Below, in pieces: positions 100 through 6,075 of a DNA stretch of 6,075 nucleotides. This stretch comes from a virus. Position 1 is the first letter of the stretch. Each line of letters starts with the position of its first letter. The notes under the pieces were generated by a model. The model searched no databases. It saw nothing but the letters and a program-made list of their open reading frames with translations, and had not been told where the DNA came from. Both the position numbers and the translations under genes were made by a program. Location: positions 1 to 6,075 of IMG/VR virus record IMGVR_UViG_3300045988_003265. One strand, written 5' to 3'.

Positions 100-1172
100 T
101 CTGTGTTTATCCAATTTTGATACAGGTCACTGTTATATGTTTTTAGTGCTAGTCCGAATTGTGGAGCTGTTGTTTTTAAATATCCGGTTTGCTTTTCTCC
201 GGACCTTTCGTTGAATTGTTGTAATATAGGTACACTGTCTATTCCTGTTACGCTGAATGTAACATTTCCTTTTGTTGTTAAAATATTATCTCTTAGTGTG
301 TCTAGTGATTCTAGTTCCCATTGTTGTAAACCTACGGATAGACCATTGTAAATTGCATCTAATTCGTATTTACTTGTTGCTTCTAATCCTTGTATTACTA
401 GTTGGTTTCCGGCCCATATACCTATGTCCTTTCCCTTCCAGCGTCTGTATCTTAAATTTTGGCTTCCTATGAATGTAAAGTTTGCTTTTTCTTCGTCTGT
501 TGGTGTTGGTGTGAATGCAATTTTATCTCCGTTTGTGATTTGTTTATTTATTTTTGTGGTATTATAGCCCGTATCGTTTATTGTAATTGTGAATTTTCTT
601 GCTCCTCCAATTGTATAGAATTTGTCTTCTTGAGTATTAGCGTAGTAATTCTTGAATATATCGTAATATCCAATTAGTGGAACTGCATTTTTTTCAACAT
701 TTTTTGTTGTTACTCCGATGAGTGAGCCGTATCCCCTGATTCCTAAGTATGCTAGTAGACAACTTGGATTTACTTGTGTCCATTCGTCTTCCGGTTTTGG
801 GTTGTCTGTATTTTTTAAACCTACATTTAATTGCGGTATTTTTACTTGTGACATATCCAGGCCGATTTTTGTTCTATTGTTGTGTAACCAACTGTTATAT
901 AGTCTGAAAGGTACTGTATACACGTGGTGTTCTAGTTTGAAACTTCCGAATAATGGTCCTACTGTTGGATGTGTAAGTACATTTGCTTCAATATCTATAT
1001 CAATTATGTCTCCTTTTTGCACTAATAGTGTTAAATTAGGTACTAATGTTCCAGGTGCTTGTGTATTCCTGACCACTGTACTTAAGTCGTGAGTTGACAT
1101 GTTGTATGTCTTCAAGTCCACGGACATTTTATTATTGTCCCCAATGGTGTTTTTGCCTATATTTCTTTCCAT
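1..1172 (-). CDS. VP1: Major capsid protein VP1 (phiX174 F-like), 5' part (aa 1-390). It continues across the circular junction into 5976->5226.
   Basis: This ORF is absent from the supplied track because it has no in-window stop. The minus-strand ATG at 1172-1170 is preceded by AGGAGG (1185-1180) with a 7-nt spacer. Hand translation is open down to base 1: MERNIGKNTIGDNNKMSVDLKTYNMSTHDLSTVVRNTQAPGTLVPNLTLLVQKGDIIDIDIEANVLTHPTVGPLFGSFKLEHHVYTVPFRLYNSWLHNN... I checked the first 300 nt triplet by triplet and found no stop. The frame is continuous with ORF 5226..6014 through the 99-nt overlap (1172+751=1923 nt, i.e. 640 codons plus stop). I recognise the N-terminal block (PGTLVP ... HPTVGPLFGSFK ... 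VPFRLYNSW) as the microvirus F/VP1 capsid N-terminus. Confidence 0.9.
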   Translation of the reverse strand, partial: MERNIGKNTIGDNNKMSVDLKTYNMSTHDLSTVVRNTQAPGTLVPNLTLLVQKGDIIDIDIEANVLTHPTVGPLFGSFKLEHHVYTVPFRLYNSWLHNNRTKIGLDMSQVKIPQLNVGLKNTDNPKPEDEWTQVNPSCLLAYLGIRGYGSLIGVTTKNVEKNAVPLIGYYDIFKNYYANTQEDKFYTIGGARKFTITINDTGYNTTKINKQITNGDKIAFTPTPTDEEKANFTFIGSQNLRYRRWKGKDIGIWAGNQLVIQGLEATSKYELDAIYNGLSVGLQQWELESLDTLRDNILTTKGNVTFSVTGIDSVPILQQFNERSGEKQTGYLKTTAPQFGLALKTYNSDLYQNWINTDWIEGVNGINEISSVDVSDGSLSMDALNLAQKV

Positions 1173-1399
1173 TATTTATCCTCCTGATTTTTAATTGATT
1201 TTTCGAATTCGTCTGCTTCCTTAAGTGCATAAACCATTGCTGCCACTAAGTTCCAATCTGTTTTATTGATTCTCATTTCAGCGGCTTTGCGGCTTTTGAA
1301 TTTTTCCTCTGTTGCCAAGTGGTTACCGATTGTAATCATAAATTCGTTTTCGTCTGTATCAGTTGGTCTGATTATAAATGCTTCTTTTAGATTTGCCAT
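1172..1399 (-). CDS. Hypothetical acidic small protein (75 aa), translationally coupled to VP1
   Basis: The ORF starts at ATG 1399-1397, and its TAA stop (1174-1172) shares one base with the VP1 ATG (TAATG). The product is MANLKEAFIIRPTDTDENEFMITIGNHLATEEKFKSRKAAEMRINKTDWNLVAAMVYALKEADEFEKSIKNQEDK. I recognise no family. Confidence 0.6.
   Translation of the reverse strand: MANLKEAFIIRPTDTDENEFMITIGNHLATEEKFKSRKAAEMRINKTDWNLVAAMVYALKEADEFEKSIKNQEDK
1180..1185 (-). promoter_or_regulatory. Shine-Dalgarno-like AGGAGG upstream of VP1
   Basis: The minus strand reads AGGAGGATAAATAATG, which places the SD 7 nt from the VP1 ATG. The element lies inside the 3' end of the 75-aa ORF. Confidence 0.5.
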
Positions 1400-1404
1400 T
1401 TTTT

Positions 1405-1608
1405 TTAGTATTTAGGATTAATATTGATGTGTGTACTATCAACGCTTGACGTTGTTGTTTGTTCGGTCTTTTGCGTTGAGTTTTGATTGTTTTTGCTGAC
1501 GCTTAAACTCATCGTGCAACTTTGCACACAAAGCGTAGTAATGATTGCAATTATTGCGGTCGAAATAGCTCGGATAATTTCTACCCATTGAGTCCCGTTG
1601 ATTTTCAT
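1405..1608 (-). CDS. Small membrane protein (67 aa) with an N-terminal TM/signal-anchor segment, a lipobox-like VQSC and a polar S/T/N/Q-rich tail
   Basis: The ATG at 1608-1606 is preceded by GGAG (AAAGATGGAGACTTATG) and overlaps the micro-ORF stop as ATGA. The product is MKINGTQWVEIIRAISTAIIAIITTLCVQSCTMSLSVSKNNQNSTQKTEQTTTSSVDSTHININPKY. A competing ORF in another frame (1439..1648) covers the same DNA, so the choice of frame is uncertain. Confidence 0.5.
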   Translation of the reverse strand: MKINGTQWVEIIRAISTAIIAIITTLCVQSCTMSLSVSKNNQNSTQKTEQTTTSSVDSTHININPKY

Positions 1609-1697
1609 AAGTCTCCATCTTTAATGTATAAATAACATCCGCTTGCAAAAGCGATTATTAGTAATAGTATTACTAGCCCAAATATTTCTTTTGGCAT
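1605..1697 (-). CDS. 30-aa micro-ORF encoding a hydrophobic peptide with a lipoprotein-type signal (lipobox-like FASGC)
   Basis: This ORF is below the size cutoff of the supplied track, so I translated it by hand from ATG 1697-1695: MPKEIFGLVILLLIIAFASGCYLYIKDGDL, ending at TGA 1607-1605. It starts 2 nt after the stop of the 84-aa ORF (TAAACATG). Its stop overlaps the next ORF's start as ATGA. It has Lys at position 3, an uncharged h-region, and A-S-G-C with Cys at position 21, which fits the general prokaryotic lipobox rule. Confidence 0.4.
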   Translation of the reverse strand: MPKEIFGLVILLLIIAFASGCYLYIKDGDL

Positions 1698-1699
1698 GT

Positions 1700-1954
1700 T
1701 TAAAATAATTTAAGTTGTAAATTTTCTAATTGTTGTAGGTGTTCCTCCCACATGTCATAAATTTTTTCTGTTATCAACCTCCTTTCTTTTCTATTTAATT
1801 TGTATTCTTTAATTACCGTATCTTCGAATATTTCGAATCCTTGAGTAACTTCGCCTGGTTTCATGTTATACCAAGCGAATGTTTTGAACGCCTTGAATGT
1901 ACTAAATTCTTTATTCAGTATCACAAACATTGTCTTTCTTTTTGGTTTTTTCAT
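1700..1954 (-). CDS. Hypothetical small protein (84 aa) with a basic N-terminus (MKKPKRK). An alternative ATG at 1930 would give 76 aa.
   Basis: The ATG at 1954-1952 overlaps the previous ORF by 44 nt, and the TAA stop at 1702-1700 is 2 nt before the micro-ORF ATG. The product is MKKPKRKTMFVILNKEFSTFKAFKTFAWYNMKPGEVTQGFEIFEDTVIKEYKLNRKERRLITEKIYDMWEEHLQQLENLQLKLF. I recognise no family. Confidence 0.55.
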   Translation of the reverse strand: MKKPKRKTMFVILNKEFSTFKAFKTFAWYNMKPGEVTQGFEIFEDTVIKEYKLNRKERRLITEKIYDMWEEHLQQLENLQLKLF

Positions 1955-2132
1955 TTTCTTTAGGATATAATTTCCACGATTCTACTACGCATACTAGTTT
2001 TGTTTCTTCCGGGTCGTTTAGCATAATAGCAAATTTTGTTGCTATTGTGTATGTGTTCATACCTGGAATTTCTCTTTCGATAATTTTGCCTTCATTGTTT
2101 ACATAAATTGCTGTAAATTTTGTTGCTGCCAT
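1911..2132 (-). CDS. Hypothetical small protein (73 aa), first gene after the promoter
   Basis: The ATG at 2132-2130 lies about 55-60 nt downstream of the predicted promoter and has an A-rich leader with no SD. The product is MAATKFTAIYVNNEGKIIEREIPGMNTYTIATKFAIMLNDPEETKLVCVVESWKLYPKENEKTKKKDNVCDTE. I recognise no family. Its composition looks like the other genes. Confidence 0.55.
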   Translation of the reverse strand: MAATKFTAIYVNNEGKIIEREIPGMNTYTIATKFAIMLNDPEETKLVCVVESWKLYPKENEKTKKKDNVCDTE

Positions 2133-2194
2133 AATTAAAAATGTTTTTTAGTTACTATTAGTTTTATTTCTCTTCCTTGTTTTTGATTACATTG

Positions 2195-2226
2195 CAAATA
2201 TACGTGTTTTTTTTGATATCTGCAAA
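2195..2226 (-). promoter_or_regulatory. Bacteroides-type promoter: -33 TTTG (2226-2223), 20-nt spacer, -7 TATATTTG (2202-2195)
   Basis: The minus strand reads AAAATTTGCAGATATCAAAAAAAACACGTATATTTGCAATG. This matches the Bacteroides primary-sigma consensus TTTG-N19-21-TAnnTTTG as I recall it. It is positioned to drive the small-ORF cassette and VP1. Confidence 0.6.
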
Positions 2227-2304
2227 TTTTCTGATATTTGTCTGAAGCTTTTAACTATGATTAACACATCTGTACGGTAGGATGCGCGCCGCTTGAGCGC
2301 TGAT

Positions 2305-2346
2305 GGTGCAATAGAGGGCGCATAGCCCTCCTTAGCGTCTAGCACC
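2305..2346. repeat. Nested inverted repeat: GGTGC/GCACC (2305-2309/2342-2346) enclosing GAGGGC/GCCCTC (2314-2319/2325-2330, 5-nt loop)
   Basis: Direct base-by-base pairing check on the sequence. Confidence 0.7.
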
Positions 2347-2360
2347 TTGATATCGCCAAA

Positions 2361-2393
2361 GGCGCACACCACGGCTTTTGCCGGGTGCACGCC
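2361..2393. repeat. 12-bp interrupted GC hairpin (GGCG-CA-CACC-A-CGGC TTTT GCCG-GGTG-CA-CGCC). On the minus strand it is followed by TTTGG, so it could be a weak terminator for the rep transcript.
   Basis: Pairs 2361-2364/2390-2393, 2367-2370/2384-2387 and 2372-2375/2380-2383 were checked by hand. The minus-strand U tract is only 3 nt, so the terminator call is weak. Confidence 0.6.
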
Positions 2394-2550
2394 CTCATAT
2401 AGGTCTGTTCCTTAGGAAACTGTCCTTTACTTTTTCACTGTCGGTCTTTCCCGCTATACCCCTTGGCCACCCGGCCGGAGGTGTTAAATAAAACTTGTGT
2501 TTGATTATTCAGATTCTCGCCTTTGGACTTGGTTTCCTTGCGCTAGCCTA

Positions 2551-2575
2551 GGCGTATGAGTGGAACTCATTCGCC
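2551..2575. repeat. Hairpin GGCG-T-ATGAGT GGA ACTCAT-T-CGCC (10 bp, one T/T mismatch)
   Basis: Direct pairing check. Confidence 0.7.
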
Positions 2576-2576
2576 T

Positions 2577-2608
2577 GCACGTAGACGACGTCCCGTGTCG
2601 TCCAGTGC
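2577..2608. repeat. Hairpin GCAC..GACGAC(G) TCCCG (T)GTCGTC..GTGC (about 11 bp with a small internal loop)
   Basis: Direct pairing check: 2577-2580/2605-2608, 2582/2604 and 2584-2589/2597-2602. Confidence 0.7.
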
Positions 2609-2691
2609 CGCCGTCGCGTTAGCAGGCGTTAAAATCGGAGCGAAGCGACTTCCTAGAGAAAATTACCCTTTTGGCGGCTGGTCAGCAGCCA

Positions 2692-3690
2692 TCAGAACGG
2701 ACACGTCTCTAGCTGTGTATAGTCTTTGGCTCTCTCTATTGCCCAATATGTTTCTAATTGTTGCAAATCTTTATCTTGTCTTTTCTTTTGTCTTCTTAAT
2801 CTTGATAAATATTTTTGTTGTTCCCAATTTTGTAGATTGTAACCATATAGTCTACATTCTGTTTTACGTCCTTCGTTTAGTAATTGTAAATAATATTCTT
2901 CATCATCTCTATGGACTTTTTGTCCCATTACATAAATTATTCCTTTTTCTATTTTATCCAGGAATAGAGCTTCTTTTTCTTCTTCTGTAAATAGTTGATT
3001 CCTGTAATAAATTGGTAGGTTTATTTTAGACCCATTTCTTAATCTGTAAGTTTCTATTGTTTGTCCCGGTTTGTATGTATGTTTTTTTGCGTCATCTCTT
3101 TTGATATATCCAGCTCCTATGCCTTTGGAGCATAGCACTTTCCCTATAAAGTCTTTGTGTTTTTCATCTATTTTAGTCATGTATTTTGTGATATATTGTA
3201 TTGTTTTTTCATTCACGAAGAGTCCGGTGAATGTTATCCCGTAGTTCCATTTATTTGTAATTAGTTTATCTGTTCCTATTCCCCAAACTATACCGTGCAG
3301 GTGCAATCTCTCTGTTTTTTCGTGCCCTAGTTCTGTAATAAACCAATGTTTAATAGATTTACCTGTTTGTTTTCTGATTCTTTCTAGGCATAATCTAATT
3401 GCCTTGGTGGCTATTTCATTATTGTCTGTAATATTATATGTATTTGATAGTTCGCTATATGATTTATCATCAATTGTTAATGTGATAAAATATGCGTTTG
3501 GTTCTTGTCTTAATTCTTCGCTCATTCTAACTAACCATTGTCTTTGTTTTTGTTGACGGCATTCCATGCATTTTCCACATGCCGCGGTTACGTATAATAG
3601 TCTTTCGTCCGGACATTGAGGCGGTACGCCTCCATTCTTTTTGTTTGGTACATACCGCCTGTTTTTGATTAGTTTTGGATATAGACACAT
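2692..3690 (-). CDS. VP4: Rolling-circle replication initiator VP4 (HUH endonuclease, phiX174 A-like), 332 aa
   Basis: The ORF starts at ATG 3690-3688. Three RCR motifs are visible: motif I-like FITLTI, the HUH motif LHLHGIVW, and the double-tyrosine motif YITKYMTK (phiX174 A has YVAKYVNK). The N-terminus carries a Cys cluster (MCLYP...QCPDE...ACGKCMEC) that is common in microvirus Reps. Confidence 0.93.
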   Translation of the reverse strand: MCLYPKLIKNRRYVPNKKNGGVPPQCPDERLLYVTAACGKCMECRQQKQRQWLVRMSEELRQEPNAYFITLTIDDKSYSELSNTYNITDNNEIATKAIRLCLERIRKQTGKSIKHWFITELGHEKTERLHLHGIVWGIGTDKLITNKWNYGITFTGLFVNEKTIQYITKYMTKIDEKHKDFIGKVLCSKGIGAGYIKRDDAKKHTYKPGQTIETYRLRNGSKINLPIYYRNQLFTEEEKEALFLDKIEKGIIYVMGQKVHRDDEEYYLQLLNEGRKTECRLYGYNLQNWEQQKYLSRLRRQKKRQDKDLQQLETYWAIERAKDYTQLETCPF

Positions 3691-3692
3691 AA

Positions 3693-4733
3693 TTATTGAA
3701 AACCTGTTTTACCTACTTTTGCTCCTAGTGCTGCTCCTGCTCCTTTTGATGCTATTTCTAGCATTCCTAGTATAATGTCTTTAACGAGCTTTTGTTCTTC
3801 AATGTCCAGGCCTTTTTTGCCTAGTTCGTATTTGTTTATTACGTCTTGCACATAGGCTTCTATTTGTTCTTTTTGGTTAATGAGTGCTTTTCCTTTTTTG
3901 GTAAGTTCTTCCCATCCTTGTAAAATTTGTGCCGGAATAGCCTTTGCTTGCTCTTCATTGACTTTTCTTTGGCTTCCTTTGAGTAATATTTCAGCCATCA
4001 GATTTTGAAGTGTTAGAGCGGATTCTTTCACTTTATTGTCAATTGTTCTTTCCTTTAACTCGTTGTCGAGTTTCATTCCGTTGATTTCTTCAGCTAGTTT
4101 ATCGATTCCTTTTTGTAGGCTTTTGATATTCCAGCGTGTTTCCTCGGCTTTGTCTTTTGTCCAATCGGCCATGTTTCGTTTAAGTTCCTCTTCTGCATCT
4201 GCCACTCTGATTTGTCCTAAGATAAGGCCTTTCTTTACTTTTTCATTTGAAGTTTGTGCGATTAGGTTATCGATGGTAGCTTTTTGCAAGTCTGTATCTA
4301 CTCCGGCAATTTTGTCCGCTTCTACTTTATTTTTTTCAGCTTGACTCTTGTTGAGGTCTACTTGCGATGCTATGCTTGCTAATTGTAGTCCTAGTCCTTG
4401 TTGTTTTAGTCCCATTTCTACACTACGGTCTGTTGGTTGTGTCACTCCTTGCCCTTGTGCTCCATTGGCACTTACACCTCCGCCACCTCCCATTCCATAC
4501 ATGAGCGCTGGATTTAGTCCTGCGTTTTTTATATGTTGTTTTTGGTTTTCGTAGTTTGTATAGTCCCACAGGTCTTTGTTTCTTTGTTGATTGTTTTTAG
4601 CCATTTGTTCATTATACCTGTTCTGGATATCCATTAGTCTTAGTTGGTTTCCCCATTGTTCGTTGGCAGTTCCGGAACTCATTGCTGCGTTCAGTCCTGC
4701 CCCGAATATGCTGAATATTCCGTTTCCTAACAT
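3693..4733 (-). CDS. VP2: Minor capsid / DNA pilot protein VP2 (phiX174 H-like), 346 aa
   Basis: The ORF starts at ATG 4733-4731, and its TAA stop is 2 nt before the rep ATG (TAATTATG). The N-terminus is hydrophobic (MLGNGIFSIFGAGLNAAMS). It is followed by a Q/N-rich block, a Gly run (MYGMGGGGGVSANGAQGQG) and a long charged, heptad-like region (KSQAEKNKVEADKIAG...EELKRNMADWTKDKAEETRWNIKSLQKGIDKLAEEINGMKLDNELKERTIDNKVKE). This architecture is typical of microvirus pilot proteins. Confidence 0.8.
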   Translation of the reverse strand: MLGNGIFSIFGAGLNAAMSSGTANEQWGNQLRLMDIQNRYNEQMAKNNQQRNKDLWDYTNYENQKQHIKNAGLNPALMYGMGGGGGVSANGAQGQGVTQPTDRSVEMGLKQQGLGLQLASIASQVDLNKSQAEKNKVEADKIAGVDTDLQKATIDNLIAQTSNEKVKKGLILGQIRVADAEEELKRNMADWTKDKAEETRWNIKSLQKGIDKLAEEINGMKLDNELKERTIDNKVKESALTLQNLMAEILLKGSQRKVNEEQAKAIPAQILQGWEELTKKGKALINQKEQIEAYVQDVINKYELGKKGLDIEEQKLVKDIILGMLEIASKGAGAALGAKVGKTGFQ

Positions 4734-5225: not shown

Positions 5226-6075
5226 TTATAAATTTGGAATTTGTTTTGCGCTGATAAGCCTTCTTGCCTTGATGTCAAACTTTGTTTGTATCCAAAAGTT
5301 CATAGCTTCTAGATTTGTATCTGCAAATATGTAATTGAATTTCACTGGATCTATATATGTAGATAAGTCTCCGATTGTGATTTTTGTCGGAGACGATCCA
5401 CCTATTATTTCTAGTTCGTAGTTTCTGTTCATTACCATGAATGCTTCATTATCTTTGATAGCAAAGTTTCCGTATGTTCTGTTTACATTTGTCATGTAAT
5501 TGATCCATGCTACCGTCTTACCTGCTGCTGTTTCTTTTTTATCTGGGTCTGCATTGTAGTATCCTGCCCACCATGCTCGTTCACTGTTGATACTGTCTTG
5601 GTATCCGATTCCGTCGAGTGCTGGTTTATGGAGGTCGTCCATTGTTTTGAGTTCTGTATCCCATTGGTTACCCTGTGAGTAGTCGATTCTTGGTGTGATA
5701 CTACAGATACACATGATATACCCCGGTTCGGTTACTTTTATTTTGATGTGTCCGCCTCGTTGTTTGTTGGTTGTTACACCTCTTCCTGCAAGTGCTCCTA
5801 ATGGTTCTTGTTCTGTTGCACTGTTACTGATTACTTCTTGGAATACAATTTCTTGACTTGTTCCTCCTTCGAATACAGGTGTCTCGCATCTTTCCATATA
5901 TTCTCCACCTGTGAATACTGTTTCTAGCCAGTCTCTGTATGTTCCTCCGCTTACTGCAATTCTGTTTAACATGTTGTAAACTTTTTGTGCTAAGTTGAGT
6001 GCATCCATTGACAAACTGCCATCTGAAACGTCTACGGATGAAATTTCATTTATTCCGTTTACTCCTTCAATCCAA
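5226..6075 (-). CDS. VP1: Major capsid protein VP1, 3' part. Bases 5977-6075 duplicate 1-99, and the TAA stop is at 5228-5226.
   Basis: The track ORF 5226..6014 begins at an internal TTG, and the frame stays open to the window end. The sequence ...SMDALNLAQKVYNMLNRIAVSGGTYRDWLETVF...GGHIKIKVTEPGYIMCICSITPRIDYSQGNQW...IPNL is the C-terminal half of the same capsid protein. It joins 1..1172 in frame once the terminal repeat is collapsed. Confidence 0.9.
   Translation of the reverse strand, partial: WIEGVNGINEISSVDVSDGSLSMDALNLAQKVYNMLNRIAVSGGTYRDWLETVFTGGEYMERCETPVFEGGTSQEIVFQEVISNSATEQEPLGALAGRGVTTNKQRGGHIKIKVTEPGYIMCICSITPRIDYSQGNQWDTELKTMDDLHKPALDGIGYQDSINSERAWWAGYYNADPDKKETAAGKTVAWINYMTNVNRTYGNFAIKDNEAFMVMNRNYELEIIGGSSPTKITIGDLSTYIDPVKFNYIFADTNLEAMNFWIQTKFDIKARRLISAKQIPNL
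5977..6075. repeat. Terminal overlap copy 2 (identical to 1-99)
   Basis: Same comparison. Collapsing the overlap restores an uninterrupted 640-aa VP1 frame. Confidence 0.97.

Follow-up and report, generated by a model that had tools for sequence, protein, structure and literature searches.

Replication origins of microviruses have been experimentally mapped mainly in the phiX174 group. The complementary-strand origins of ssDNA phages, including the phiX174 ori(-)/primosome assembly site, G4 oric and the M13 intergenic region, are non-coding, intergenic and hairpin-dense, and they act on the packaged strand. In phiX174, ori(-) is an intergenic hairpin that is bound by PriA and overlaps the end of a transcription unit, while in M13 the minus origin, the plus origin and other hairpins share one intergenic region of about 500 nt. 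The phiX174 viral-strand origin, in contrast, is a 30-nt sequence inside gene A that is not flanked by hairpins and is cleaved by the gene A protein at G4305|A4306. A comparable function is served in rolling-circle plasmids of Firmicutes and in ICEBs1 (sso1) by single-strand origins (ssoA, ssoU, ssoT, ssoW), which are orientation-specific, active only as ssDNA, and 150-300 nt long with several stem-loops, and which depend on the host and so are modular and exchangeable between replicons (PMC4595007). Among microviruses, intergenic hairpins with compensatory substitutions have been reported in reekeekee- and roodoodooviruses and proposed by their authors as possible ori(-); according to that paper, these are one or two hairpins conserved among closely related genomes within each clade (PMC9865509). 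Here, we examined a GC-rich region of about 400 nt in a microvirus genome, and we found that it is composed of two conserved modules, one of which is shared across clades and contains a nearly invariant unpaired motif.

The window, meaning the whole 6,075-nt stretch of IMG/VR record IMGVR_UViG_3300045988_003265 that we analyzed, is a circular microvirus genome of 5,976 bp with a 99-nt terminal overlap. All of its genes are on the - strand, including rep (3690..2692; Pfam PF23343). An earlier note had described an abrupt GC-rich, hairpin-dense island between rep and the promoter, and this observation held up exactly. Positions 2281-2700 hold 228/420 G+C (54.3%), while the flanking segments 2161-2220 and 2761-2820 hold 15/60 and 14/60. 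Within the island, 2275-2480 is 57.8% G+C, the linker 2481-2515 is 22.9%, and 2516-2691 is 56.8%. The island is the G+C maximum of the genome: all 417-nt windows that do not touch it have a mean of 0.361, a standard deviation of 0.033 and a maximum of 0.441, against 0.544 for the island. The left border of the non-coding region is marked by a Bacteroidetes-type promoter for the downstream small ORFs (TTTG-N19-TATATTTG, - strand, 2226-2195), which contains the only TAnnTTTG on the coding strand and was also hit by a sigma-70-like scan.

No ATG-initiated ORF spans the island. The GTG-initiated 67-aa ORF and the + strand 144-aa ORF that the note had mentioned do exist, but they match nothing in Pfam or PHROGs, and loop lengths vary by 1-2 nt among relatives; we do not regard the island as a decayed gene. 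A covariance-model search of the whole window against Rfam at E<=10 gave only a chance hit outside the island, and ARAGORN found no tRNA or tmRNA. Folding energy alone provided weak evidence for structure, since with DNA parameters z was only -1.5 to -2.2 relative to shuffles, although with RNA parameters z for the whole island was -4.5 on the - strand and -3.4 on the + strand. The case for structure rests on covariation, which the note had named as a test of its proposal.

Module 1 (2279..2490, + strand) belongs to a family with 81 distinct cores in gut microviruses. A blastn search found it in 27 GenBank microviruses, and an exact motif scan of IMG/VR returned 71 stretches, of which 54 lie in microvirus genomes that carry the element and 17 were excluded by eye as chance matches in unrelated contigs (one of these, L015, is a CRISPR spacer that matches the 16-mer described below). 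A covariance model of the element, R1, matches the window at 2296-2402 with 106.9 bits and gave 55 further hits. A relative, L081, has the minimal version, which ends at CCCTATATGCCC. Across three hairpins of the module (P2-P4), 91.4% of cells are paired, against 44% or less when the partners are slid, and 13 of 18 pairs change on both sides, a result that 0 of 500 shuffles reached.

The first hairpin, P1 (2284..2300), has the form GCGC / GCCGCTTGA / GCGC, and its stem varies as GCGC/GCGC, CCGT/ACGG and GCGT/ACGC among relatives of subtypes A and C, as read by eye rather than counted. In P2 (2314..2330; GAGGGC / GCATA / GCCCTC), five of 6 pairs show changes on both sides, and twenty distinct variants are all fully paired. 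P2 is followed by TAGCGT (2333..2338), which is identical to the CS-6 hexamer of ssoA-type single-strand origins (PMC4598088). We regard this match as a lead only; it is six bases long, lies in an unpaired spacer, whereas ssoA-type origins carry RSB and CS-6 motifs in defined hairpin positions, and is found as TAGCGT or TAGCGA in subtypes A and C but replaced by AGCGTT in subtype B. Next comes an unpaired 16-mer, TAGCACCTTGATATCG (2340..2355), which is invariant or nearly so in 40 aligned sequences, with variants CTCCTTGATAT, CACTTTAGTAT and CACCATAGTAT in close relatives. Within it, CACCTTGATAT matches phiX174 CAACTTGATAT at 10 of 11 positions (CACCTTG|ATAT against CAACTTG|ATAT; the phiX174 rep_origin is at 4306), on the T-rich strand in both cases. 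If the 16-mer is a Rep nick site, the cut would fall between G2349 and A2350. Our comparison with phiX174 was limited to the 16-mer and model R1: apart from this 11-nt stretch the 16-mer finds nothing there, and R1 finds nothing in L078, the 601-nt phiX174 segment around ori(+).

Downstream of the 16-mer, P3 (2354..2364; CGCC / AAA / GGCG) is a 4-bp stem with a triloop, in which the inner pairs vary as CG, GC, AU and UG and the loops across relatives are AAA, GAA, GGA, AGA and GTA, each closed by C:G. P4 (2367..2387; CACC-A-CGGC / TTTT / GCCG-GGTG) contains a bulged A; six of 8 pairs change on both sides, 96% of cells are paired, and nine G:T cells lie in this helix on the + strand. The 3' half of the module (2420..2462) is pyrimidine-rich and ends in the conserved CCCGCTATACCCC, with the end motif CC(C/T)CCC(G/T)(C/T)TATA(C/T) in the alignments. 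It is followed by hairpin P7 (2465..2476; GGCC / ACCC / GGCC), which has compensatory variants GGTC/GACC in L186 and GCCCG/CGGGC in L083, both relatives.

An AT-rich linker (2485..2515), conserved in the three homologues L184, L185 and L186, joins module 1 to module 2 (2516..2691, + strand). An exact search of IMG/VR for the module 2 motif found nothing, but a metagenome scan then returned these three homologues, which align at 95% mean column identity over the module while their flanks are 74-81% identical. In module 2, 96.9% of cells are paired and 6 pairs change on both sides, against 0-2 when the partners are slid. A closing helix pairs 2518-2522 with 2624-2628. In hairpin Ha (2551..2575; GGCG-T-ATGAGT / GGA / ACTCAT-T-CGCC), the stem is largely rewritten in L185 but stays paired and keeps the GGA loop, with four pairs changing on both sides. 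Hairpin Hb (2577..2608) comprises GACGAC / GTCCCGT / GTCGTC inside an outer stem GCAC/GTGC, and A:T changes to G:C in both the inner and the outer stem of L185. A conserved 25-mer, TTAAAATCGGAGCGAAGCGACTTCC (2629..2653), is shared with L184-L186, with a civet microvirus (L002) and with one bacterial intergenic region (L188). It contains GCGAAGC (2640-2646), and d(GCGAAGC) is reported to form a very stable DNA mini-hairpin (Hirao et al.). Finally, hairpin Hd (2672..2691; TGGC-G-GCT / GGTC / AGC-AGCCA, 7 pairs with one bulged G) ends at the rep stop codon; 100% of its cells are paired in 4 genomes, and the changes in L186 give two G:T wobbles on the + strand.

We also examined the pairings listed in the earlier note and found that every complement is present in the sequence. 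The local stems at 2314-2319/2325-2330, 2361-2393, 2551-2575 and 2577-2608 are kept by compensatory changes in relatives, as is hairpin P7 (GGCC 2465-2468 / GGCC 2473-2476), which overlaps a stem that the note had placed at 2468-2483 and that pairs at 4 of 5 positions. The pairing 2305-2309/2342-2346 (GGTGC/GCACC) is compensated in the relatives L079 and L082 but mismatched in several others. The three long-range pairs (2356-2364/2518-2526, 2414-2420/2532-2538 and 2572-2578/2622-2628), the last of which the note had taken to suggest alternative folds, are not kept in L184-L186, and we treat them as chance. A pairing of the 16-mer with the downstream AAGGTAGCTG, suggested by RNAalifold, has no covariation and is degraded in the window's own subfamily, and CTTGATAT-like matches inside the capsid gene of three further genomes (L130, L134 and L139) look like chance.

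The pairing data indicate that the folding strand is the + strand. In P3 and P4 there are 12 G:T cells against 2 A:C cells, both of the latter in one misaligned row, and in module 2 the standard-pair changes on one side only are all to G:T. The excess of G:T over A:C is partly expected from a C-to-T mutation bias on that strand, so it is not independent of the T skew described below. In addition, several loops resemble DNA loops, being C-GNA-G triloops typical of DNA mini-hairpins: P3 carries C-GAA/AAA/GGA/AGA/GTA-G triloops, Ha has a GGA triloop, and module 2 contains GCGAAGC.

Near-identical module 1 cores occur in two microvirus clades. Cores are 90-100% identical between clades in 3 subtypes, even though VP1 is about 21% identical and the Reps cannot be detected by BLAST. 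One CRISPR array carries spacers against both clades, so they share a host. Relatives that lack module 1 carry other GC-rich hairpin islands at the same position. The orientation of the element follows the T-rich strand and not the genes, which held for 59 of 59 loci; in loci fetched by capsid protein, all 34 model hits in the window's clade are antisense to the genes and all 21 in the other clade are sense. On the coding strand, 4-fold sites are 54-75% A in every member of the window's clade that we sampled, down to 35% capsid identity and with one odd 4.1-kb contig excepted, and 55-70% T in the other clade, and when expressed on the element strand the two spectra are nearly the same. Three controls are T-rich on the coding strand (phiX174, 63% T; SpV4, 65% T; Chp2, 50% T), although phiMH2K, a cultured gokushovirus, has an A-rich coding strand (47% A), so either reversed polarity is more widespread or the skew rule has exceptions. 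The agreement between orientation and skew rests on two clades and at least three transfers, not on a hundred independent events. Polarizing substitutions by majority rule gave an apparent T>C excess, which we judged to be an artifact of saturation in genomes about 78% identical; using sister pairs plus two outgroups instead, we found G>T well above C>A (191 against 50) but C>T only slightly above G>A (612 against 514), which supports the model only mildly.

Given these results, we consider it somewhat more likely than not that the island is the phage's replication-origin region and works as ssDNA on the packaged strand, chiefly as a host-primed complementary-strand origin. In this view, after entry or after displacement during rolling-circle replication, the + strand of the window would fold into P1-P4 and P7 in module 1 and Ha, Hb and Hd in module 2, and these hairpins, with the unpaired 16-mer between P2 and P3, would be recognized by host priming machinery (primase, a primosome or RNA polymerase) that lays down the primer for complementary-strand synthesis, as at the phiX174 and G4 complementary-strand origins, the M13 intergenic region and the sso elements. 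Because such a signal would depend on the host and not on the phage Rep, it could move between unrelated microviruses of the same host, but only in the orientation that puts it on the packaged strand. The 16-mer may in addition be the Rep nick site, cut as CACCTTG|ATAT. Our analysis demonstrates the conservation, the covariation, the strand bias of wobble pairs, the sharing of cores between clades, the agreement with T skew and the shared host. That the element works as DNA rather than RNA, that it directs primer synthesis and conversion to double-stranded DNA, and that the T-rich strand is the packaged one (by extension from phiX174, SpV4 and Chp2) are inferences from sequence alone, and the exchange between clades fits dependence on host factors without demonstrating it. 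No host priming signal is known for Bacteroidota, the type of bacterium to which the host belongs, so nothing in the sequence can be matched to a recognized primase or RNA polymerase site. The interpretation offered in the earlier note was partly supported: of its three hypotheses, ssDNA hairpins serving complementary-strand synthesis is the best supported, a phage-carried structured ncRNA is weaker although not excluded, and a captured host fragment is not supported. The note had missed the resemblance of the conserved 16-mer to the phiX174 nick site, the two-clade distribution, and the implication for which strand is packaged.

It is also possible, though we think it unlikely, that module 1 is mainly the viral-strand origin, with Rep nicking the supercoiled replicative form at CACCTTG|ATAT and the flanking hairpins exposing or positioning the site; this could hold together with a complementary-strand origin, as in the M13 intergenic region, where both origins are adjacent. 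The 16-mer is the most conserved stretch and lies between hairpins, the chance of such a match to phiX174 is about 0.002-0.005 by our rough estimate (although we noticed the resemblance only after looking at the sequence), and the central variants TAGTAT recall the nonanucleotide of eukaryotic Rep-encoding ssDNA viruses. However, the remaining 19 nt of the 30-nt phiX174 origin, comprising the AT-rich spacer and recognition sequence, are not matched, and the motif does not follow Rep. Reps 71-91% identical to the window's carry three different central variants, while a Rep only 39% identical, and Reps of the other clade, carry the identical 16-mer, and L088, a relative whose Rep is 57% identical, has an unrelated island without the motif. 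A structured RNA read from the + strand (regulatory, decoy or anti-defence), a transcription terminator or an mRNA-stabilizing 3' structure appears less likely still. Covariation with G:U-compatible wobbles on one strand is also what an RNA would show, the island folds 3.4-4.5 sd better than shuffles with RNA parameters, and in both clades it lies at the end of a transcription unit and just upstream of a promoter. Nevertheless, in addition to the lack of any Rfam, tRNA or tmRNA match, no TAnnTTTG lies upstream on the + strand, the aligned upstream sequences in the other clade share no obvious promoter motif, and no intrinsic-terminator-like site was found. A terminator or 3' UTR role would require a fixed orientation relative to the genes, which is not seen, and triloops closed by C:G are typical of DNA rather than RNA hairpins.

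We consider it very unlikely that the modules are selfish or recombination-related DNA, either a small mobile ssDNA element that spreads between co-infecting microviruses or a folded attP for Xer-type integration as in CTX phage. Near-identical cores do occur in deeply divergent genomes, modules are combined in different ways among relatives, and Xer-mediated integration has been proposed for Bacteroidetes microviruses (PMC3091885). However, a motif scan of 185,579 species genomes gave only two chance hits, one of them inside a coding region, and no integrated copy. There is one copy per genome, always at the same position within a clade, with no dif-like 28-bp palindrome in the core, and the strong purifying selection (95% identity in module 2 against 74-81% in the flanks) points to a function for the phage. 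The absence of host copies in the same scan, together with homologous islands bearing the same flanks in L184-L186 and in many IMG/VR and GenBank genomes, also effectively refutes an assembly chimera or a recently captured host fragment, despite the sharp compositional borders. One metagenome contig that holds this sequence, L187, is itself chimeric, but its junction lies inside the pilot gene (window 4259) and not at the island, and the island and both flanks are contiguous there over 3,822 identical bases.

If our reading is right, it supplies the first candidate origin for the abundant gut microviruses, it would be a concrete exception to the published view that microviruses rarely exchange material across families (PMC9239249), and it offers a cheap sequence marker for which strand is packaged. 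It would further follow that the window belongs to a large clade of gut microviruses that package the strand complementary to all of their genes, that is, negative-sense ssDNA phages, with the orientation of a horizontally exchanged origin module marking which strand is encapsidated. We hold this inference, too, to be only slightly more likely than not; such polarity has not been described for this phage family, and our literature searches for negative-sense microviruses or for this element found nothing among the papers searched. The base composition of the clade is the mirror image of the T bias seen in phiX174, SpV4 and Chp2 and in a second clade that infects the same host. The possibility that a whole clade is negative-sense runs against a standing assumption (Roux et al.), and it would affect strand-aware virome methods, mutation-spectrum analyses and the design of synthetic phage genomes.

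The genome is a circular microvirus of 5,976 bp, with positions 1-99 and 5977-6075 of the window repeating each other as a 99-nt terminal overlap. All long ORFs lie on the - strand, including rep at 3690..2692, which matches Pfam PF23343, and the pilot protein gene at 4733..3693, which was identified by a PHROG match. The 640-aa capsid gene runs across the junction of the circle, which is why it is missing from a plain ORF list. The small ORFs downstream of the promoter (73, 84, 67, and 75 aa; window 1172-2132, - strand), two of which overlap (1911-2132 and 1700-1954), had no Pfam match, and the three that were compared with PHROGs, which did not include the 67-aa ORF at 1405-1608, had no match there either.

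The earlier note's observation of an abrupt GC-rich, hairpin-dense island held up in full. Its counts are exact: positions 2281-2700 hold 228/420 G+C, while the flanks hold 15/60 and 14/60. The island is the G+C maximum of the genome at 0.544, whereas windows of the same length that do not touch it have a mean of 0.361, an sd of 0.033, and a maximum of 0.441. Every complement that the note listed is present in the sequence, although folding energy alone is weak evidence for structure. With DNA parameters, z was -1.5 to -2.2, and with RNA parameters for the whole island, z was -4.5 on the - strand and -3.4 on the + strand.

We next asked whether the island could be explained by something already known. 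It is not a known RNA family, as a search of Rfam at E<=10 returned no match and a search for tRNA and tmRNA found neither. It is not protein-coding, as the ORFs that overlap the island match no protein family. It is not a host fragment, as a scan of one genome from each of 185,579 species for the 20-base core pattern gave two chance hits, one of them inside a coding region. Nor is it an assembly artefact, since homologous islands with the same flanks occur in other genomes. In addition, positions 6272-10093 of the metagenome contig L187 (ERZ773277 NODE_3109; 1-10093) are 100% identical to window 438-4259, and the chimeric junction of that contig lies inside the pilot gene, not at the island. 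The remaining 6.3 kb of L187 is unrelated DNA of about 61% G+C, so this contig is most likely a chimeric assembly, perhaps from the same or a closely related sample as the window.

The island is composed of two modules, the first of which spans 2279-2490. A blastn search of GenBank phages found the core of module 1 in 27 microvirus records, in stretches that are unannotated in most of them (three records annotate a hypothetical protein there). An exact scan of IMG/VR for TAGCACCTTGWTATCG returned 71 stretches, 54 of which are in microvirus genomes of about 6 kb that carry the element. The other 17 were excluded by eye as chance matches in unrelated contigs, although one of them, on contig L015, turned out to be a CRISPR spacer. 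The alignment shows three hairpins, P2 at 2314-2330, P3 at 2354-2364, and P4 at 2367-2387, together with an unpaired 16-mer, TAGCACCTTGATATCG, at 2340-2355, which is invariant in most copies. In close relatives (L083, L084, L086, and L184-L186), the center of the 16-mer changes from CCTTGATATC to CTTTAGTATC, CCATAGTATC, or CCTTAGTATC, and TAGTAT recalls the nonanucleotide TAGTATTAC of eukaryotic Rep-encoding ssDNA viruses.

To determine whether this structure is maintained in evolution, we examined base pairing across 40 aligned sequences. We found that 91.4% of cells form standard pairs, against 44% or less when the 3' partners are slid by 1-3 columns, and that 13 of 18 pairs change on both sides, values that 0 of 500 shuffles reached. 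Twenty distinct P2 variants are all fully paired. In subtypes A and C of the element, a further hairpin, P1 (2284-2300), varies as GCGC/GCGC, CCGT/ACGG, and GCGT/ACGC, while hairpin P7 (2465-2476) has the compensated variants GGTC/GACC and GCCCG/CGGGC. Genome L081 has a minimal element that ends at CCCTATAT(G/A)CCC just before rep, which fixes the core at about 190 nt. A covariance model built from this alignment, R1, scores 106.9 bits on window 2296-2402.

The second module spans 2516-2691. The closest relatives in IMG/VR have other GC-rich inserts at this place or none at all, but a metagenome scan for a 20-mer from module 2 found three microvirus genomes, L184-L186, that carry it. Module 2 aligns at 95% mean column identity, while the flanks of the same genomes are 74-81% identical, and the few differences are concentrated in stems and are compensated. 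We found that 96.9% of cells are paired and that six pairs change on both sides, against 0-2 in the slid controls, and every change on one side only that keeps a standard pair gives a G:T pair on the + strand. The hairpins are Ha (2551-2575, with a GGA loop), Hb (2577-2608), and Hd (2672-2691, ending at the rep stop codon), and a closing helix pairs 2518-2522 with 2624-2628. The three long-range pairings proposed in the earlier note are not kept in these genomes. The 25-mer TTAAAATCGGAGCGAAGCGACTTCC of module 2 (window 2629-2653) also occurs at 1837-1861 of a bacterial contig, L188 (SDBT01199579.1), in an intergenic region between what we read from the translations as an amidohydrolase-like gene and an aminotransferase-like gene, where it is followed by TTTTCAAT repeats. 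Five matching bases beyond the 20-base search pattern make chance unlikely, although we have no explanation for this occurrence.

To see which strand folds, we counted 12 G:T cells and 2 A:C cells in P3 and P4, both of the latter in one misaligned row. This indicates that the structure is selected on the window + strand, which is antisense to the genes here. However, a C-to-T mutation bias on that strand would by itself favor G:T over A:C, so this evidence is not independent of the compositional skew described next.

Among the first 59 loci, 48 carry the element antisense to their genes and 11 carry it in the sense orientation, and at 4-fold degenerate sites the coding strand is 53-68% A in the first group and 55-80% T in the second. 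We then fetched genomes by capsid protein and found that all 34 R1 hits in the window's clade are antisense to the genes, whereas in a second clade, whose VP1 begins MAHFTGLKELQN, all 21 hits are sense. With one exception, every sampled genome of the window's clade, with or without the element, has 54-75% A on the coding strand, and every genome of the second clade has 55-70% T. The exception, L108 (IMGVR_UViG_3300045988_182640), is an odd contig of 4124 nt with 30% A and 34% G; part of its capsid gene is 97% identical to the window's, and it is possibly chimeric or recombinant. Expressed on the element strand, the two spectra are nearly the same, at about 65% T, 13% A, 11% G, and 11% C.

The control phages behaved like the second clade, with coding strands of 63% T and 7% A in phiX174, 65% T in SpV4, and 50% T in Chp2, and it is established that ssDNA phages are T-biased on the packaged strand (Xia and Yuen 2005; Cardinale and Duffy 2011). 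In contrast, the coding strand of the cultured gokushovirus Bdellovibrio phage phiMH2K (NC_002643; VP1-VP3) has 47% A, 23% C, 23% T, and 7% G at 4-fold sites, so either its packaged strand is also antisense to its genes or the T-skew rule has exceptions. The simplest reading of our results is that the T-rich strand, which carries the element, is the strand that spends time single-stranded, that is, the packaged strand, in which case the genes of the window's clade would lie on the complementary strand. Substitutions polarized with sister pairs and two outgroups lend mild support, with G>T at 191 against C>A at 50 and C>T at 612 against G>A at 514 on the T-rich strand.

The opposite biases of the two clades cannot be explained by host codon usage, given that the clades share a host. 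Contig L015 (IMGVR_UViG_3300008060_000094; 1-12288), although filed as viral in IMG/VR, is a bacterial type II CRISPR-Cas locus that encodes the C-terminal part of Cas9, a Cas1 of the NMENI subtype, and 65 repeats of 47 nt (20 of the 65 lie at 7823-9310, with the spacer at 8483-8512). At E<=0.01, 35 of its 64 spacers hit the fetched loci; about two dozen of these are near-full-length matches to microvirus genomes of both clades, while the rest are short (15-21 nt) and may be chance. One spacer matches the 16-mer plus P3 exactly, showing that the host targets the putative origin core.

The VP1 proteins of the two clades are about 21% identical, and their Reps are not detectable by BLAST, and yet the 76-nt cores are up to 100% identical between clades. 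Examples among the sampled genomes are L046 against L031 (100%), L014 against L085 (98.7%), L006 against L050 (96.1%), and L020 against L069 (89.5%), which together cover three element subtypes. This requires at least three recent transfers, each ending in the orientation that matches the T-rich strand. Members of the window's clade that lack R1 carry other GC-rich hairpin islands at the same position. One such family (CCGCCGGTAGGCGTG..TCGTCGCCA.TCGGGCGAGACCGA) is shared by L088 (about 2067-2330 on the T-rich strand), L089, L112, and L113, and L112 also carries a third module that is shared with the L079 group. The intergenic region is a mosaic of interchangeable structured modules.

Every microvirus needs two origin signals, one on the packaged strand for complementary-strand synthesis and a nick site for Rep on the same strand. 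Several properties of the element fit a complementary-strand origin: it is structured as a single strand, its orientation is tied to the inferred packaged strand, it is independent of Rep, it is exchangeable between phages of one host, and it is replaceable by other hairpin modules. These are the properties in the sso definition of PMC4595007 and of the phiX174 ori(-) hairpin bound by PriA. Three smaller features also point to DNA rather than RNA, based on what is characteristic of DNA mini-hairpins, namely the C-GNA-G triloops of P3, the GGA loop of Ha, and the GCGAAGC heptamer at 2640-2646. TAGCGT at 2333-2338 equals the CS-6 hexamer of ssoA, but this is a match of only six bases and is absent from subtype B. 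The conservation, covariation, orientation, composition, and sharing between clades rest on the sequence comparisons themselves, whereas priming of complementary-strand synthesis, action as DNA, and packaging of the T-rich strand are inferred, and none of the functional steps has been shown experimentally.

Two other roles remain possible. The 16-mer contains CACCTTG|ATAT, which matches the phiX174 cleavage site CAACTTG|ATAT at 10 of 11 positions, suggesting that it could also be the Rep nick site; however, the motif does not follow Rep similarity, so we rank that role second. An independent ncRNA is likewise not excluded, but we found no Bacteroidetes-type promoter on the + strand upstream of the island and no terminator-like site, and a 3' UTR or terminator role would need a fixed orientation relative to the genes, which is not seen. 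The interpretation offered in the earlier note was partly supported: of its three hypotheses, a complementary-strand origin is the best supported, a structured ncRNA is weaker, and a captured host fragment is rejected.

In the literature we searched, we found no report of this element and no report of negative-sense microviruses. Among the papers bearing on these points (Roux et al. among them), Kirchberger et al. 2022 state that all microviruses have genes facing one direction and rarely exchange genes across families. The nearest precedent is Olo Ndela et al. 2022, who describe clade-specific intergenic hairpins with compensatory changes and propose them as possible ori(-). The finding is real and biologically meaningful, and on the best-supported reading the element would be an ssDNA replication-origin signal, a class of signal that is already known, but with two properties that were unexpected: it is exchanged between deeply divergent clades, and its orientation would imply reversed genome polarity in the window's clade.
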